The notes beneath the pieces were generated by a model. It made no database searches, had not been told where the DNA came from, and saw only the letters and a list, made by a program, of their open reading frames with translations. A DNA stretch of 64,000 bases from an uncultured Woeseiaceae bacterium (GTDB taxonomy: Bacteria > Pseudomonadota > Gammaproteobacteria > Steroidobacterales > UBA11654): positions 4,753 to 68,752 of the forward strand of contig CAZWGB010000001.1 in assembly GCA_964633465.1 (NCBI GenBank), read 5' to 3'. Position numbers and translations under genes: made by a program. The stretch's first letter is position 1. Each line of letters begins with the position of its first letter. Positions 21,547 through 62,658 of this stretch are shown here, piece by piece.

Positions 21547-22440
21547 CTATTGTTTCAATTCATCGGCAATTCTTTTAATGTGTTCCGGTCTTGTTGTGCA
21601 GCAGCCACCAACCACATAAGCGCCCTCATCAATCCAAATTTTAGCCTCTTTTGCATATTCCTCAGCTGTAATGGGCAGGGTATTTGCATAGTGATTTACA
21701 TCTATATCTACAGTTTCTCCCAGATCCTGAATTGATTTTTGTTCTTTGAGTTTTCTAGAGTTGGCATAGATTCCAAAATTTATTGCTTTTTTAAGTATTC
21801 CTATTGTATTTGTGGCTATATCAGCAGCACAGCAGTTGATTAACTGGCATTCGATATCCAACTGATTGGCCTCCGTTATGGCGTCTATTAATTTTTCCCC
21901 ACTGGGTAATGTGTCTCCTGAAACCCCTTTGTTGGTCCAGCTCAGCCAAACATGGTCACTAAATTCCAAGGCATTCTTTGCTGCATTGATGCCTTCTCTA
22001 ATGGAACCCATTGTTTCACATATGATTAAGTCCACGTTTTGTTGTATGAATGATCCAAGATTTGAATAATAGTCATCAAGCACATCATTGCTGGGTGTAA
22101 GGTCTGGCCGAAAATTGGTCTCAATAGGTGGAAAGGATCCGGCTATGAGAACCTCAGGAAATCCTTGTCTAGATTCTTCAGCTAGATCAATTGCCAATCT
22201 GGTTAGATTTTCAAATTCGCTTTCAATGCCTTCTCTTTTGAGTATGTTTGGTGTGACGTAGTAATTGTTGGTGATGATCACATTACAGCCTGCTTTGATG
22301 TTGTCTTTATGTATTTCAACCACTGCATTGGGAGATTTAATTAGTGCCGAGACCGACCAAATGGAAGTTTTCCAATCAGGGACCTCAAAGCCACGTTGAT
22401 GCAGTTCATCACCCATGCCGCTGTCTAGAAGATATTTCAT
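21547..22440 (-). CDS. Homocysteine S-methyltransferase family protein (MmuM/BHMT-like)
   Basis: 297 aa with a C-terminal GGCCTT zinc-ligand motif and an N-terminal LLDSGMG..L motif of the Hcy-binding domain. Confidence 0.8.
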   Translation of the reverse strand: MKYLLDSGMGDELHQRGFEVPDWKTSIWSVSALIKSPNAVVEIHKDNIKAGCNVIITNNYYVTPNILKREGIESEFENLTRLAIDLAEESRQGFPEVLIAGSFPPIETNFRPDLTPSNDVLDDYYSNLGSFIQQNVDLIICETMGSIREGINAAKNALEFSDHVWLSWTNKGVSGDTLPSGEKLIDAITEANQLDIECQLINCCAADIATNTIGILKKAINFGIYANSRKLKEQKSIQDLGETVDIDVNHYANTLPITAEEYAKEAKIWIDEGAYVVGGCCTTRPEHIKRIADELKQ

Positions 22441-22709: not shown

Positions 22710-22855
22710 TTCTCGATCAAAGTAGAGATCCTCTTTAGCGGTATTTATTAAGCACCCGCAAGCCGGTACAAATCGGTGCTATGTCATGAAGTATTAACTG
22801 CAATTAAGAAATAATCAAGTATTAATTCTGCTATAGATATTGCCTTAGGGAATAA

Positions 22856-55108: not shown

Positions 55109-55423
55109 ATGAAATTAGATAGAAAATATACTGAAAAACAGGAAAGAGAAGTTGAAGATAAATTGTTTGAGGCCATTAAAACTTTAGATGGCTTTGAAGA
55201 GTATCGATCATTTTTTCTGGATATTCTTACTCCTGCAGAGTTCCAAGCCATAAAAGACAGATGGGCAGTAGCTGCACTTTTGTACGAAGGTTATACATAC
55301 AGAGAGATCAACAAAATTAGTGGTGTAAGCATTACCACGGTTGCACGTGTGGCAAGGTTTATATCCAATGGCTCAGGTGGATATCAACTAGCTCTTGAGA
55401 GAGTTAAGAAGAATAATGAATAA
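55109..55423 (+). CDS. TrpR-related YerC/YecD family DNA-binding protein
   Basis: 104 aa. LFEAI..L....E....F..D..TP.E......R..VA.LL.EG.TYREI....GVS..TVARV.R....GSGGYQLALER fits the YerC/YecD (Trp-repressor-like) pattern. Confidence 0.75.
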   Translation: MKLDRKYTEKQEREVEDKLFEAIKTLDGFEEYRSFFLDILTPAEFQAIKDRWAVAALLYEGYTYREINKISGVSITTVARVARFISNGSGGYQLALERVKKNNE

Positions 55424-56312
55424 AAAACGCATTAAAATTGCTATTCAAAAATCAGGCAGATTAGCCGATCATTCTTCTGATCTACTGAAAAAGTGTGGTT
55501 TGGTTGTTAGTCGAAATAAAGGACAGCTGATTGGCTATGCTGAAAATATGCCTTTTGATCTTTTGTTTGTAAGAGACGATGATATTCCAAGTCTGGTAAA
55601 AGATAATCTAGCTGATTTAGGCATAGTGGGTCTAAATGTTGTTTTGGAAAAACAATTTGAGTATACAAATTCCACACAAAAAGAGTTATTTTCCATTGAA
55701 GAATATTTAGATTTTGGTCAATGCAGACTGTCTTTCGCTTACCCAGAAGTTGGTGATATTCAATCACTGGACCAACTAGTAAATAAAAAAGTTGCTACTA
55801 GTTATCCATTTATTGTCGGTGATTATCTTGAAAGAGAGAATTTCGATGTAGAAGTAATAAAGTTTTCAGGTGCTCTTGAGCTGGCACCAAGTTTGGGCAG
55901 TGCGGATGCAATTTGCGATTTAGTGTCCTCAGGGAGGACATTGAGAGTCCATAATCTTAATGAAGGTGAGTCGATCTTAGAAAGCACGGCTGTAGTGATC
56001 AAATCTAAGAACATCTCGGACCCCTTTAAGCAAGAATGGATTAGGAAATTATTAGAACGTATTAGTGGCGTGTTGCAAGTTAGGGAGAGTAAATACGTCA
56101 TGATGCACGCTCCAAGGAATTCCATTGATAAGATCACTGAACTCATTCCTGGTACAGAATCGCCAACAATTATCCCACTCGAAGGGACAGATGAAACAGT
56201 TGCCTTGCACGTAGTGTGTAAGGAGGATGTTTTTTGGGAAACACTCGAAAATCTTAAGCAAGAAGGAGCATCGTCAATTTTAGTCGTCCCTGTCGAAAAA
56301 ATGTTGGTGTAA
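55416..56312 (+). CDS. hisG: ATP phosphoribosyltransferase, long form
   Basis: From ATG 55416 (MNKKRIKIAIQKSGRL), 298 aa, with a C-terminal regulatory domain. 8-nt overlap (ATGAATAA) with the TrpR-like gene. Confidence 0.9.
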   Translation: MNKKRIKIAIQKSGRLADHSSDLLKKCGLVVSRNKGQLIGYAENMPFDLLFVRDDDIPSLVKDNLADLGIVGLNVVLEKQFEYTNSTQKELFSIEEYLDFGQCRLSFAYPEVGDIQSLDQLVNKKVATSYPFIVGDYLERENFDVEVIKFSGALELAPSLGSADAICDLVSSGRTLRVHNLNEGESILESTAVVIKSKNISDPFKQEWIRKLLERISGVLQVRESKYVMMHAPRNSIDKITELIPGTESPTIIPLEGTDETVALHVVCKEDVFWETLENLKQEGASSILVVPVEKMLV

Positions 56313-57621: not shown

Positions 57622-58680
57622 GTGACTCTAGATATTAACAATCTTGTCAGGCCCGAAGTAATGGCACTTAAGCCATATAAACCTGCTCAATATTTACCGA
57701 ATATGATTCGGCTAAACGCCAATGAAAGTCCCTATACTTTATTTGATGAAAATGAAGATATGGCTTTGAATCTGTATCCTCAAGCCGTTCCTGTAAAAAT
57801 AAGGAATGCTGTTGCTGATTACTTAAATCTCAGTGTTGAGAAATGTGTTATTACACGGGGAAGCACTGAAGCAATCGATTTGCTTACAAGAGTTTTTTGT
57901 CGACCCAAAATAGATGAGGTAATTATTTTCCCTCCAACTTTTGAAATGTATCAGATGTATGCTTCAATCCAGGGGGCAAAAATTAAATCAGTGCCTTTGC
58001 TTGCAAATAAAAACTATGCTTTGGATGTTTCTGAATTAAAGAGACAAATTACCCCCGAAAGTAAATTGACCTTTCTGCCATCGCCATCTAATCCAACAGG
58101 CCATAGCTTTAATAAAAGAACAATTTTTGAAGTGTGCAAGTCTTTGAAGGGTTTTGGTTTGTTGATATTGGACGCTGCCTACATTGAATTTACGGACAAG
58201 GATTATACAAGTGAATTATTGAATGAGTTTGATAATGTTGTTGTCTTAAGAACACTCTCCAAGGCTTTCGGACTAGCTGGCTCTAGATGTGGCGCTATGT
58301 TGTCTTCTAAAGCAATCTGCGATCTTGTTATGAGGGTAATCCCACCTTATTCTTTTTCGGTGCCCGCAGAACAATCAGTTTTAAAGGCTTTGTCGGATAA
58401 AGGCATCACAAATTCAAAAAACAATATTAAGAAAATAATTGAAGAAAGAAAGTATTTGCTTGCTGAGTTTTCAAAGATAGATTGTATAAAAAAAGTGTTC
58501 CCTTCAGATGCTAATTTTATCCTGCTCAGGGTTGAAGATGCCGATCGATTCTATCAAAGGGCAATGGACGTTAAGTTACTCGTAAGGAATGTCAGTTATC
58601 AACCAACATTAGAAAACTGCATTAGGGTTACTGTTGGTAGTAGAGAACAAAATAATCTTCTTATTAAGGCCATCGCTTAA
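57622..58680 (+). CDS. hisC: Histidinol-phosphate aminotransferase
   Basis: GTG start 1 nt after the hisD stop; LNANE(S)P, SPSNPTG, and the RTLSKAFGLAG PLP-lysine motif. Confidence 0.9.
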   Translation: MTLDINNLVRPEVMALKPYKPAQYLPNMIRLNANESPYTLFDENEDMALNLYPQAVPVKIRNAVADYLNLSVEKCVITRGSTEAIDLLTRVFCRPKIDEVIIFPPTFEMYQMYASIQGAKIKSVPLLANKNYALDVSELKRQITPESKLTFLPSPSNPTGHSFNKRTIFEVCKSLKGFGLLILDAAYIEFTDKDYTSELLNEFDNVVVLRTLSKAFGLAGSRCGAMLSSKAICDLVMRVIPPYSFSVPAEQSVLKALSDKGITNSKNNIKKIIEERKYLLAEFSKIDCIKKVFPSDANFILLRVEDADRFYQRAMDVKLLVRNVSYQPTLENCIRVTVGSREQNNLLIKAIA

Positions 58681-58681
58681 A

Positions 58682-59758
58682 ATGAACACCAACAATACAA
58701 AAATCCTTTTCTTAGACCGAGATGGGACAATAATTTACGAGCCTGATGATTTTCAGGTCGATTCTATTGAAAAAATAAAATTGGTGCCCGGTGTCATCTC
58801 ATCACTTAACTCGTTATTGGAAAATGGTTATGAACTGGTAATGGTCAGTAATCAGGATGGTATGGGAACAAAAACTTTTCCTGCGCAAGACTTTCTCAAA
58901 GCACACAACTACATAATAGATTTATTTGAGTCACAAGGAATCAAGTTTAAGGATATATTCATCTGTCCTCATTTCAAATCCGATCGATGTGATTGCAGAA
59001 AACCTTCCACAGGCTTATTAACCGAATTTTTTGTAAAAAATAATATCGATAATGAAAGATCATATGTGATCGGTGATCGAAAAACCGATATGGAGTTAGC
59101 AAAAAAACTTACTTTAAAAGGTATCCAAATAGATCCGTATCGAGTTGGTGCATGGAAAAGTATTGAGAATGATATTCTGAGTGTTGACCGAAGATCAAAA
59201 ATTATTCGCGAGACTAGCGAAACGAAAATAAGTGCTGAAATTAACCTTGCTGTTTCAGAACCAGTAAACATTGATACAGGGATCGGTTTTTTTGATCACA
59301 TGTTAGAACAGTTAGCAAAACATGCAGATATATCGATTATTATCCAATGCCATGGTGATTTAAATATTGACGAACATCACTCTGTTGAGGATATAGCTCT
59401 TGCTCTTGGGCAGGCCTTTAGGCAGGCGCTGGGAAAGAAATATGGAATCAACCGTTATGGATTTACATTACCAATGGATGAATCCATTGCTTCCGTTACT
59501 TTGGATTTATCTGGCAGACCACACTTTTCTTTTAAAGGGCGCTTTAGTCGAGAAAAAGTAGGTGGTTTGCCAACAGAATTAATTCCCCATTTCTTTCAAT
59601 CATTAAGCCAATCTTTGAAAGCAAGTATCCATATAGAATTCAAAGGTGATGATAATCACCATATGATAGAGGCTTGTTTTAAAGCATTTGGGCGTGCATT
59701 TAAACAGGCAATTAGTCTTACCAGTAATAGTCTTCCATCCACAAAGGGTGTTTTGTGA
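58682..59758 (+). CDS. hisB: Bifunctional histidinol-phosphatase / imidazoleglycerol-phosphate dehydratase
   Basis: From ATG 58682: the HAD motif FLDRDGT, then IGPD motifs (GIGFFDHML, DEHHSVEDIALALG, NHHMIEACFKAFGRA). Confidence 0.95.
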   Translation: MNTNNTKILFLDRDGTIIYEPDDFQVDSIEKIKLVPGVISSLNSLLENGYELVMVSNQDGMGTKTFPAQDFLKAHNYIIDLFESQGIKFKDIFICPHFKSDRCDCRKPSTGLLTEFFVKNNIDNERSYVIGDRKTDMELAKKLTLKGIQIDPYRVGAWKSIENDILSVDRRSKIIRETSETKISAEINLAVSEPVNIDTGIGFFDHMLEQLAKHADISIIIQCHGDLNIDEHHSVEDIALALGQAFRQALGKKYGINRYGFTLPMDESIASVTLDLSGRPHFSFKGRFSREKVGGLPTELIPHFFQSLSQSLKASIHIEFKGDDNHHMIEACFKAFGRAFKQAISLTSNSLPSTKGVL

Positions 59759-60357
59759 GCCTTGAGACAAAAATTGCTGTAATAGATTATGGCGGTGCAA
59801 ATATTTCTTCACTCACATTTGCCCTAACTAGACTTAATGCCAAGTTTACAGTGACCAATAGAAGCGAAGAAATTTCGAGTGCAACCCACATAATACTTCC
59901 TGGAGTTGGAGCAGCTAAAGATGCAATGGAAAAACTTTCACAATCGAGCCTAATCAAGACAATCAAAAATCTTACTCAACCAACTTTGGGTATCTGTCTA
60001 GGAATGCAGCTTTTATTTGATTATTCAATGGAAGAAAACGTTAAGTGTTTAGGAATTATTGGAGGAGAATGTAGGAGTTTTGATCGCAAAAAAAATTTAC
60101 CAGTGCCACATATGGGATGGAACAATGTTTCGATAAATAAAAAAGTTCCATTGACTAATAATTTCAACGAAGGTTCTTACTTTTATTTTGTTCACAGTTT
60201 TTATACTCCATTGATTAATGAAACCGTGGCAACAACTAAATATGTTGTTCCTTTCTCAAGTATTGTGCAGAAAGAAAATTTTATGGGCACACAATTTCAT
60301 CCAGAAAAATCAGGAAAAGAAGGCTCAAAACTTCTAGGTTCATTTATCAATTTATAA
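59755..60357 (+). CDS. hisH: Imidazole glycerol phosphate synthase, glutamine amidotransferase subunit
   Basis: GTG start in a GTGA overlap with hisB; GICLGMQLL catalytic Cys motif; FHPEKS. Confidence 0.9.
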   Translation: MSLETKIAVIDYGGANISSLTFALTRLNAKFTVTNRSEEISSATHIILPGVGAAKDAMEKLSQSSLIKTIKNLTQPTLGICLGMQLLFDYSMEENVKCLGIIGGECRSFDRKKNLPVPHMGWNNVSINKKVPLTNNFNEGSYFYFVHSFYTPLINETVATTKYVVPFSSIVQKENFMGTQFHPEKSGKEGSKLLGSFINL

Positions 60358-60363
60358 AATTTT

Positions 60364-61101
60364 ATGAATTTAATACCAGCAATTGATCTTATGGATGGAC
60401 AATGCGTCAGATTATTTCAGGGTGGTTTTAATACTGTAACTTATTATGATTTCAATCCTACTGATTTAGCCAATAAATATGAGGAAATGGGTTTTTCAAA
60501 GCTACATATTGTTGATCTTGATGGGAGTAGAAAAGGATTTTCAAATAATTCAAGTGTAATTACCGAAATTATTAAATCCTCAGGCTTGATAGTTCAATTG
60601 GGCGGAGGGATTCGAAGTATAGATAAAATTAGAGAATGGATTGATATAGGGGTTGATCGAATAATATTAGGCAGCTATGCAATTCATAATATCAACAAAC
60701 TGAGAAATTCGTTGAATGACAATGAATGCTCCAAACTCATTATTGCTTTGGACGTTTTATTCAAAAACAATCTACCCGTAGTTATGACTCATGGATGGCA
60801 GAAATCAAGCGGCAAATCTTTGTGGTCATTACTGAAAAAATTTAATGAGGAAAATTTTGACAATTTTCTTGTCACTGATATATCAAAAGATGGAACGATG
60901 ATTGGACCAAATATCGAATTATATTCGAACTGTATAGAGTACTCTCCAGAGTCACGTTTTACTGCTTCCGGAGGCATATCTAATATCTCAGATGTCATTG
61001 AATTGTCTGATTTAGGTTTAGATTCAACTGTCACTGGTAAAGCCCTATTAGAAAATACAATCACTGCAGAGGAGATAAAAAAATTCTTACGAAACGAATA
61101 A
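60364..61101 (+). CDS. hisA: ProFAR isomerase
   Basis: [18 protein letters not shown]-terminus and GGGIRS motif; 245 aa. Confidence 0.9.
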
Positions 61102-61850
61102 TCCCATGTCTAGATGTTAAGGAAGGCTCGGTGGTAAAAGGAGTTCGCTTTCAGAATCATGAGGTGATTGGAGATATCTTGGATTTAGCTTCGAAATATA
61201 ATCTTGAAGGAGCAGATGAGCTCGTCTTTTACGATATTACAGCAAGTCCAGATAATAGATCTGTTGATAAAAAATGGATTCATAAAATTGCTAAAAAACT
61301 GGATATTCCTTTCTGCGTAGCAGGAGGTATTAAATCAGTTGCAGAAGCTGAAGAGGTTTTGAATTATGGAGCTGACAAAATATCAATCAATACGCCAGCT
61401 TTGTTAAACCCAGATCTAATTGATAATTTAGCAGAACGTTTTGGTTCCCAGTGTGTGGTAGTAGGCATAGACAGTTTTCAAGAAGATTCCGAATATAGAG
61501 TTTACAGTTATACAGGTGACCCAAATAAAACGGTTAATACCTTAAAGAACACTTTTGATTGGGTGAAAGAAGTGCAACATAGAGGTGCTGGAGAGATTGT
61601 TCTAAATTGCATGAATCAAGATGGTGTTAAACGAGGTTTTGATATTGATCAGCTTCTGAGAGTTAGAGATCTATGCACAGTTCCATTGATTGCTTCTGGC
61701 GGGGCTGGGACCATGAAACATTTTGCAGAAGTAATAAAAAAAGCAGATGTCAGTGGGGCACTAGCAGCATCAGTTTTTCATAAAGAATTGATAGGTATAA
61801 CCCAGTTAAAACAATACTTAATCAAACAAGACATAGAGGTAAGAATATGA
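61083..61850 (+). CDS. hisF: Imidazole glycerol phosphate synthase cyclase subunit, apparently initiated at ATT
   Basis: The track ORF starts at GTG 61131, but the in-frame upstream codons read (ATT)[22 protein letters not shown]. This aligns residue for residue with E. coli His[24 protein letters not shown]. No ATG/GTG/TTG is available in that frame after the stop at 61038. AGGAG (61070-61074) lies 8 nt before ATT 61083. Confidence 0.9.
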
Positions 61851-62146
61851 GCAAAATATCCAATAAATTTATTTTTAAATTGGAAGACATTATAGATAAA
61901 AGAATAGTGGATCAGTCTGAAATGAGCTATACCGTTGACATTCTTAATAAAGGAGTCGGTCAAGTGGCAAAGAAACTCCTCGAAGAGAGCTCAGAACTTG
62001 CTTTCGCATCTGTAGAACAAAAGAGTACAGCAGATATTGTCCACGAAGCAGCAGATTTAATTTTTCATTTTTTAATCATGCTTAAAGCAACAGGTCTGAC
62101 ATTAAATGATGTTTCAGAGGAATTGGAAAGTAGACATAAAAACTAA
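61847..62146 (+). CDS. hisE: Phosphoribosyl-ATP pyrophosphatase
   Basis: 99 aa; SYT..LL..G......KK..EE..E pattern; ATGA overlap with hisF. Confidence 0.85.
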
Positions 62147-62163: not shown

Positions 62164-62658
62164 CTATAGTTTGGTTGGGTTAGAAGTCTCAGAATAAACA
62201 ATCTCTGGATCAAAAACTTTTTCAGAATCACTGAAACTGAGCATGATTTTTTTATTCACTTTAAGATTCTGATTAAGTCTAATTTTTCGATAAAAACAAG
62301 AGCGATAACCCACGTGACAGCTTGCGCCCCCTGTTACTGTTACCTTTGCCCAAACAGCATCTTGATCGTCATCAATGACCAATTCGTTGACTTTTTGGAC
62401 AAAACCACTTGTTTCTCCTTTATGCCAAATGATTCCTCTACTTCGGCTGAAATAATGCATTTCTCCTTTTTGTATGGTGAGCCTAAAAGCCTCCCGATCC
62501 ATGTAAGCATGCATCAATAGTTCACCTGTTTCGAAATCGGTCGTGACGACTGGGATGAGTCCTTTTGAATCAAATTTAGGGGCTAGCTCATTACCTTCTT
62601 CAACTTGTTTTATGCTTCTTCTCTCAGAGAAAATATTTTCATTTTTCACTTGTTTCAT
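62164..62658 (-). CDS. hisI: Phosphoribosyl-AMP cyclohydrolase
   Basis: GLIPVVTTD...ELLMHAYMDREA...YFSRSR...WHKGETSG....V.....D.D.D.....V...G..CH.G..SCF; 164 aa with a C-terminal extension. Confidence 0.9.
   Translation of the reverse strand: MKQVKNENIFSERRSIKQVEEGNELAPKFDSKGLIPVVTTDFETGELLMHAYMDREAFRLTIQKGEMHYFSRSRGIIWHKGETSGFVQKVNELVIDDDQDAVWAKVTVTGGASCHVGYRSCFYRKIRLNQNLKVNKKIMLSFSDSEKVFDPEIVYSETSNPTKL

Follow-up and report, generated by a model that had tools for sequence, protein, structure and literature searches.

The hisF gene of an uncultured Woeseiaceae bacterium is, on the sequence evidence assembled here, very probably translated from a near-cognate AUU codon at position 61083, by means of an upstream Shine-Dalgarno (SD) sequence, probably with coupling to the translation of hisA, and with a start codon that appears to be locked in place by the overlap of the two genes. 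All positions refer to the window, i.e., the whole 64,000-nt stretch of contig CAZWGB010000001.1 that was analyzed.

The window carries a complete his operon on the plus strand, for which open reading frames (ORFs) and profile matches give the order hisG-D-C-B-H-A-F-E. Upstream in the same operon, hisH (59755..60357, plus strand; TIGR01855, 215.8 bits) encodes the glutaminase partner of HisF. It is followed by hisA (60364..61101, plus strand), whose 245-aa product, ProFAR isomerase, matches TIGR00007 over residues 3–237 with 225.8 bits, ∼3 bits below the curated cutoff of 228.95. The hisF gene itself (imidazole glycerol phosphate synthase cyclase subunit; 61083..61850, plus strand) encodes 255 aa when read from the ATT, and its stop codon is overlapped (ATGA) by the ATG of hisE (phosphoribosyl-ATP diphosphatase; 61847..62146, plus strand; TIGR03188, 81.1 bits).

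Several further observations concern the surroundings of the junction. An ORF on the minus strand (62164–62658) looks by its sequence like hisI (PRA-CH), representing a separate gene that is convergent with the his operon, and its counterpart in eleven close relatives (L001-L011) carries PF01502. Only hisE follows hisF in the window, and a fused hisIE follows hisF in the Steroidobacteraceae loci L095, L097, and L098. The TTG starts of the longest ORFs for hisG (55395–56312) and hisB (58634–59758) are probably too far upstream; in relatives, HisB comprises 358 aa and starts from the ATG of MNTNNTKILFLDRDG (∼58685). At a distance from the operon, the minus strand (22714–22789) matches the Rfam family SAM_alpha (SAM-II riboswitch, RF00521) with 37.8 bits versus a gathering score of 36. 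The match is located ∼270 nt upstream of an ORF on the same strand (21547–22440) that, by its translation, resembles a homocysteine S-methyltransferase. Most descriptions of the SAM_alpha family come from Alphaproteobacteria, whereas the remainder of the window appears to be gammaproteobacterial.

The 3′ end of hisA reads ...GAG GAG ATA AAA AAA TTC TTA CGA AAC GAA TAA, and its final 19 nt overlap hisF. Within the codons GAG GAG ATA lies a putative SD sequence for hisF, AGGAGAT (61070..61076, plus strand), and the ATT (61083..61085, plus strand) is found 8 nt 3′ of AGGAG (61070–61074) and 16 nt upstream of the hisA stop codon. The A of this ATT is the third base of the hisA Lys codon AAA (61081–61083), and the two Ts are the first two bases of the Phe codon TTC (61084–61086). 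In the hisF frame, a TAA at 61038–61040 is followed by a stretch that is open from 61041 and contains not a single ATG, GTG, or TTG until the GTG at 61131. A preliminary description of this DNA had reported both the open frame without a canonical start before 61131 and the placement of the ATT inside the final 19 nt of hisA, at a distance of 8 nt from AGGAG; re-reading the coordinates in the sequence confirmed these positions throughout. Two other start codons were considered and rejected: an ATT further upstream at 61047, which lacks an SD sequence and is not conserved, and codon 2 (CTT), a position that is CTT, CTC, CTG, or CCN across the clade described below.

The protein read from the ATT matches the NCBIfam hisF profile TIGR00735 with 336 bits (cutoff 294.55), its residues 2–254 aligning to profile positions 2–254 of 254. 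In a PDB alignment with residues 2–250 of Thermotoga maritima HisF, the N-terminus is free of gaps, the ATT falls on Met1, and the Asp of the CLDV motif (GAT, 61113..61115, plus strand) falls on Asp11. This agrees with the earlier placement of the ATT at the Met1 position and of the CLDV aspartate upstream of 61131. The Asp of the GID motif aligns with Asp130, and we take Asp11 and Asp130 (T. maritima numbering) from published enzymology to be the catalytic aspartates of HisF. Asp11 is part of the product only if translation begins at or before the ATT at 61083.

The first canonical in-frame start of hisF is the GTG at 61131..61133 (plus strand), which is listed among the ORFs and is the choice of Prodigal-type gene callers. 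Translation from this codon would yield a 239-aa HisF that lacks its first 16 residues, and this is the version present in public catalogues (P0001, P0002). Such a protein would, however, be deprived of strand β1 and Asp11, and codons 2–16, which it omits, encode conserved amino acids and vary synonymously across the clade. Moreover, there is no SD sequence ahead of 61131 (the preceding sequence reads AAGGAAGGCTCG GTG). The first canonical codon also shifts among relatives, being a TTG one codon earlier in L012-L014 and the GTG of the CLDV motif elsewhere, as expected of codons that occur by chance. We consider a start at 61131 extremely improbable.

The ATT start of hisF is already present in public annotation (GenBank/PGAP). 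NCBI proteins of 255–262 aa (P0007, P0009, P0014, P0022, P0034, P0092, and P0110) carry their initial M exactly where the DNA reads ATT, and the GenBank hisF genes of the cultured Steroidobacter denitrificans (CP011971.1) and of Povalibacter uvarum start at ATT. Cultured isolates of the ATT clade were recovered by a search from a Steroidobacteraceae member; a search for a cultured Woeseia isolate returned MAGs only. In the ENA, JGI, and Logan catalogues, the same genes are either truncated (235–250 aa) or over-extended (275–351 aa), and several of the truncated HisF proteins were shown to start past Asp11. Short HisF proteins in databases were discarded as evidence for a missing start, since for two of them (P0119 and P0102, 244 aa) the underlying gene is that of P0007 (255 aa), with the start placed at the GTG of the CLDV motif. 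Thus, protein lengths alone are uninformative, and the DNA was read instead.

The closest database proteins (P0001 and P0002) are 96–98% identical HisF proteins of 239 aa called from the same GTG as in the window. We therefore examined the junction at the DNA level in L001-L011, which stem from eleven different samples and several assemblers and belong to the same species as the window or to a sister species. All 11 of 11 read AGGAGATAAAAAAATTCTTACGA with exactly seven A residues, and they carry two haplotypes near the junction (A/V in HisA, K/R in HisF). Eleven independent assemblies that agree in A7 and differ nearby exclude a homopolymer error. A comparison of orthologous junctions had been proposed in the preliminary description; it thus yields A7 in each of the close assemblies and an ATT that is kept clade-wide. 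Homopolymers are error-prone on some sequencing platforms, and the full-length HisF is missed by gene callers, both of which would fit an artefact at the junction (a true A8 or A6) or a pseudogenized hisF. Against this stand the identical A7 in the eleven samples despite two haplotypes elsewhere in the junction, the conservation of an ATT without an A run across the set of 77 loci introduced below, and a HisF that shows no other defect, exceeds the curated cutoff, and is encoded in a complete his operon, so that artefact or decay retains a close to negligible probability. As a separate observation on this set, the hisH of L001 (1623–2087) is called with 154 aa versus 200 aa in all sister contigs, followed by a gap and then hisA, which suggests a frameshift or an assembly error in that contig.

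The ATT is also found far outside the species of the window. The metagenome contigs L012-L014 (∼73% identical) read GAGGTGAAACA ATT CTT ACA AGA AGA ATA ATT CCT TGT CTA GAT GTA, i.e., they carry ATT at the same codon, have no A run, and encode the N-terminus with many synonymous differences from the window. In a scan of GTDB species representatives, the closest 80 loci showed HisF identities of 62–74%, the best match being a Tara Oceans MAG (L015) with only 74%. The codon aligned with Met1 is ATT in 74 of these 80 loci, ATG in five, and GTT in one. The ATT-bearing GTDB loci range from 33 to 72% in GC content, and 72 of the 74 have kept the 19-nt overlap with hisA; in the remaining two (L060 and L074), the hisA stop codon directly follows the Phe codon (ATT CTG A), resulting in a 7-nt overlap. 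In the Steroidobacteraceae loci L095, L097, and L098, the ATT and the Phe codon are retained and the overlap is 37 nt, because Ile6 is encoded by ATC and not ATA, so that hisA runs on.

In a neighbour-joining tree of HisF, all ATT loci form a single clade, which according to record titles and look-ups takes in Woeseiales, Candidatus Rariloculales, Steroidobacterales, and many other Gammaproteobacteria. Four of the ATG sequences fall outside it (Thalassotalea, Psychrosphaera, and other Alteromonadales-like records). Judged from these alignments, the ATT start is a clade-wide trait and not a peculiarity of the window genome. Neither the window nor the ATT loci carry a canonical start before Asp11, with the exception of L034 and L092, where a GTG at codon 10 is too late to keep the N-terminus of HisF. 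In four loci (L016, L046, L069, and L091), a stop codon in the hisF frame lies two codons before the ATT, so that neither an upstream start nor a shift site could be accommodated.

Two loci without ATT are nested inside the clade. L039 (CAZFJU010000168.1, ∼3001) has an ATG in a rebuilt junction in which the end of hisA seems remodelled and the overlap apparently much shorter; this resembles an escape from the lock through such remodelling. L079 (2990–3010 of OZ250159.1, the chromosome of a Candidatus Rariloculaceae MAG) is the sole GTT member of the clade; its GTT at hisF codon 1 corresponds to a silent A-to-G change in hisA, and no canonical start is present ahead of Asp11. This locus could be explained by a long-read assembly error, by a gene that has lost its function, by another route to HisF, or by initiation at a codon without known start activity, and we counted it against the explanation of the ATT as a start codon.

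Selection at the junction was assessed in a column-by-column base table of 77 ATT loci, consisting of the window, L012, L014, and the 74 GTDB species representatives. With the A of the ATT as +1, positions −12 to −7 read G G A G (A/G) T, the consensus being found in 70, 77, 77, 77, 76 (54 A and 22 G), and 77 of the 77 loci, respectively, and positions +1 to +4 are A T T C in all 77. Three of these columns (−12, −9, and +1) coincide with hisA third positions and are conserved in 70/77, 77/77, and 77/77 loci, whereas the other hisA third positions (−24, −21, −18, −15, −6, and −3) retain only 0.08–0.47 bits and are near saturation. Thus, an SD sequence at a functional distance from the ATT is invariant even at silent hisA sites (G at −9; 77 loci), and the ATT itself is conserved beyond the needs of the overlapping hisA frame, with its silent A invariant in 77/77. 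All 13 of 13 low-GC loci use GAG for the conserved Glu codon from which GGAG takes its last G, compared to a GAA:GAG ratio of 206:101 within these genes. Third positions of hisA codons are occupied by A at a mean frequency of 0.14, falling to 0.03 in GC-rich genomes, versus 77/77 at +1. A naive joint probability of the invariant A at +1 amounts to ∼1e-69, a figure that ignores shared ancestry; despite shared ancestry, the saturation of neighbouring silent sites indicates that there has been ample time for change.

The pattern of variation differs between the two sides of the ATT. Among the 77 loci, the variable columns 3′ of the ATT are third positions of hisF codons, whereas on its 5′ side the first and second positions of the hisF frame vary freely, which indicates that protein-coding constraint in this frame starts at codon 2. 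In codons 5–12 (RIIPCLDV), first and second positions are kept and third positions vary. Such a signature argues that the N-terminal 16 codons of hisF are under protein-coding selection.

In the preliminary description, an ATT start had been preferred over a frameshift at the A7 run (61077..61083, plus strand), and this preference is supported by the invariance of the ATT in 77 loci of a monophyletic HisF clade. In the frameshift scenario, −1 ribosomal frameshifting or transcriptional slippage on the run would produce a HisA-HisF fusion as the functional source of HisF. The heptamer A_AAA_AAA is indeed placed such that a −1 shift would lead from the hisA into the hisF frame, and it is conserved in the 11 close relatives L001-L011. 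However, these are 96–98% identical in HisF, so that conservation among them says little; the A7 at the junction is restricted to the species of the window (L001-L011) and is absent from L012-L094. All of the more distant ATT loci lack the run, with, e.g., GAAACAATT in L012-L014 and GGAACAATT in L015, and in the four loci with a stop two codons before the ATT no slippery sequence follows that stop.

The arrangement in the window resembles dnaX-type −1 frameshifting (A_AAA_AAG) in that an A-rich heptamer is in register and an SD-like element is close by. Unlike in dnaX, the heptamer is not conserved, a downstream stimulatory structure is lacking, and the spacing of the SD sequence is wrong: AGGAG ends only 2 nt ahead of the heptamer, whereas stimulation of the dnaX type needs ∼10–14 nt. 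The 70 nt downstream (61084–61153) fold at −10.6 kcal/mol versus a shuffle mean of −12.8 kcal/mol (z = +0.82), and an Rfam scan of the window gave no match at the hisA/hisF junction. In a further difference from dnaX, the downstream frame, hisF, has a conserved start and SD sequence of its own. Transcriptional slippage is described as efficient on runs of ∼9 or more, compared to the seven A residues here.

The position of the run and its register in the hisA frame were thus described correctly, but the run is not unusual in its surroundings, as 35 runs of at least A7 are present on the plus strand of the window, where base composition predicts ∼9; hisF itself has one (61736), and hisH has an A8 (60088). 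We judge the run at the junction to be incidental, a consequence of two Lys residues being encoded by AAA in an AT-rich genome. The HisA-HisF fusion by a slip on A7 or by an extra A, which had been noted as an alternative, did not hold up, since the eleven close assemblies agree in A7, the run is absent outside the species of the window, and no structure is found downstream. Frameshifting is neither needed nor supported as a source of HisF, and we regard it as very unlikely; a trace of fusion by-product may arise but is not needed.

We favor a model in which the GGAG(A)U sequence 8 nt upstream, located inside the 3′ end of hisA, would position the 30S subunit and fMet-tRNA on the AUU. The product would be the full-length 255-aa HisF, with Met as the first residue and with strand β1 and Asp11 retained. 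With a start codon 19 nt within hisA, translation of the two genes is probably coupled: ribosomes that end hisA translation would hold the site unfolded and could reinitiate. Both the actual initiation with Met at the AUU and the reason why ATT has been kept instead of reverting to ATG are what we infer from this arrangement. The overlap would act as a lock, because the last two bases of the ATT are also the first two of the conserved HisA Phe codon TTC. With Phe at this position of HisA, the start of hisF must be NTT, and ATT alone among these codons has known initiation activity, so that the otherwise silent A in hisA would be held fixed, which could explain its invariance.

A comparison with ATG lineages illustrates how close the two states are. 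The Alteromonadales-type hisA-hisF junction has the same geometry as the window, with a 19-nt overlap and an SD sequence, GAGGAGG, inside hisA. In Thalassotalea (L085) and in L056 it reads GAGGAGGCxATyGC ATG CTG GCC AAA CGC ATAA, so that the HisA tail ends in ...EEAIACWPNA; the segment from GC ATG onward and the tail ...ACWPNA before the stop characterize the ATG lineages. E. coli itself presumably has an ATG junction of this type with a 19-nt overlap. The ATT clade instead reads ...NA TTC ... and its HisA tail ends in ...xF(L/R/S/Q)xx before the stop. A single G-to-T difference separates ATG combined with HisA Cys (TGC) from ATT combined with HisA Phe (TTC). Reversion to ATG is not seen in any overlap-keeping locus of the ATT clade, an indication that selection maintains the present state. 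The invariance of the A is compatible with either the HisA Phe or the weak hisF start as the selected state.

AUU initiates at 1–2% of the level of AUG in E. coli reporters according to one study (10.1101/063800) and 6- to 8-fold below AUG according to another (PMC3592434). As AUU is weak in these reporters, the supply of HisF may not match that of HisH, and we counted this against initiation at the AUU. The strong invariant SD sequence together with coupling to hisA would plausibly offset the weakness of the codon. It is also conceivable, though rather unlikely in our assessment, that the AUU of hisF is actively selected as a throttle that ties HisF to hisA translation and to the fidelity function of IF3.

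The genes cited as the only confirmed cases of AUU starts are infC and pcnB of E. coli (10.1101/063800; PMC3592434). Like these genes, hisF has a near-cognate AUU preceded by an SD sequence and conserved among orthologues. The AUU of infC serves as the sensor of the IF3 autoregulatory loop; in contrast, no such logic is evident for an enzyme of histidine biosynthesis. Unlike in infC and pcnB, the AUU of hisF lies inside the upstream gene and has bases in common with the HisA Phe codon, so that the constraint from the overlap may explain the retention of ATT without a regulatory role. A full-text literature search found no paper on an ATT/AUU start of hisF, and start codons are not addressed in a recent his operon review that covers overlap and coupling (PMC10138114). 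The conserved AUU start of hisF is thus a new, or at least undescribed, case of a known phenomenon and not a new mechanism.

One consequence concerns gene annotation. Metagenome catalogues based on Prodigal-type callers systematically mis-call HisF across the whole clade, whereas NCBI PGAP is correct, and users of such catalogues inherit the error in estimates of pathway completeness, structure prediction, and enzyme mining. With hisF, a housekeeping biosynthetic gene joins the very short list of conserved bacterial AUU starts, and a codon that is common to two genes offers a natural test of how an overlap can lock in a weak start codon. If the AUU indeed acted as a throttle, it would be the second deeply conserved and functionally meaningful AUU start besides infC, and it would determine the HisF:HisH:HisA ratio in several gammaproteobacterial orders.
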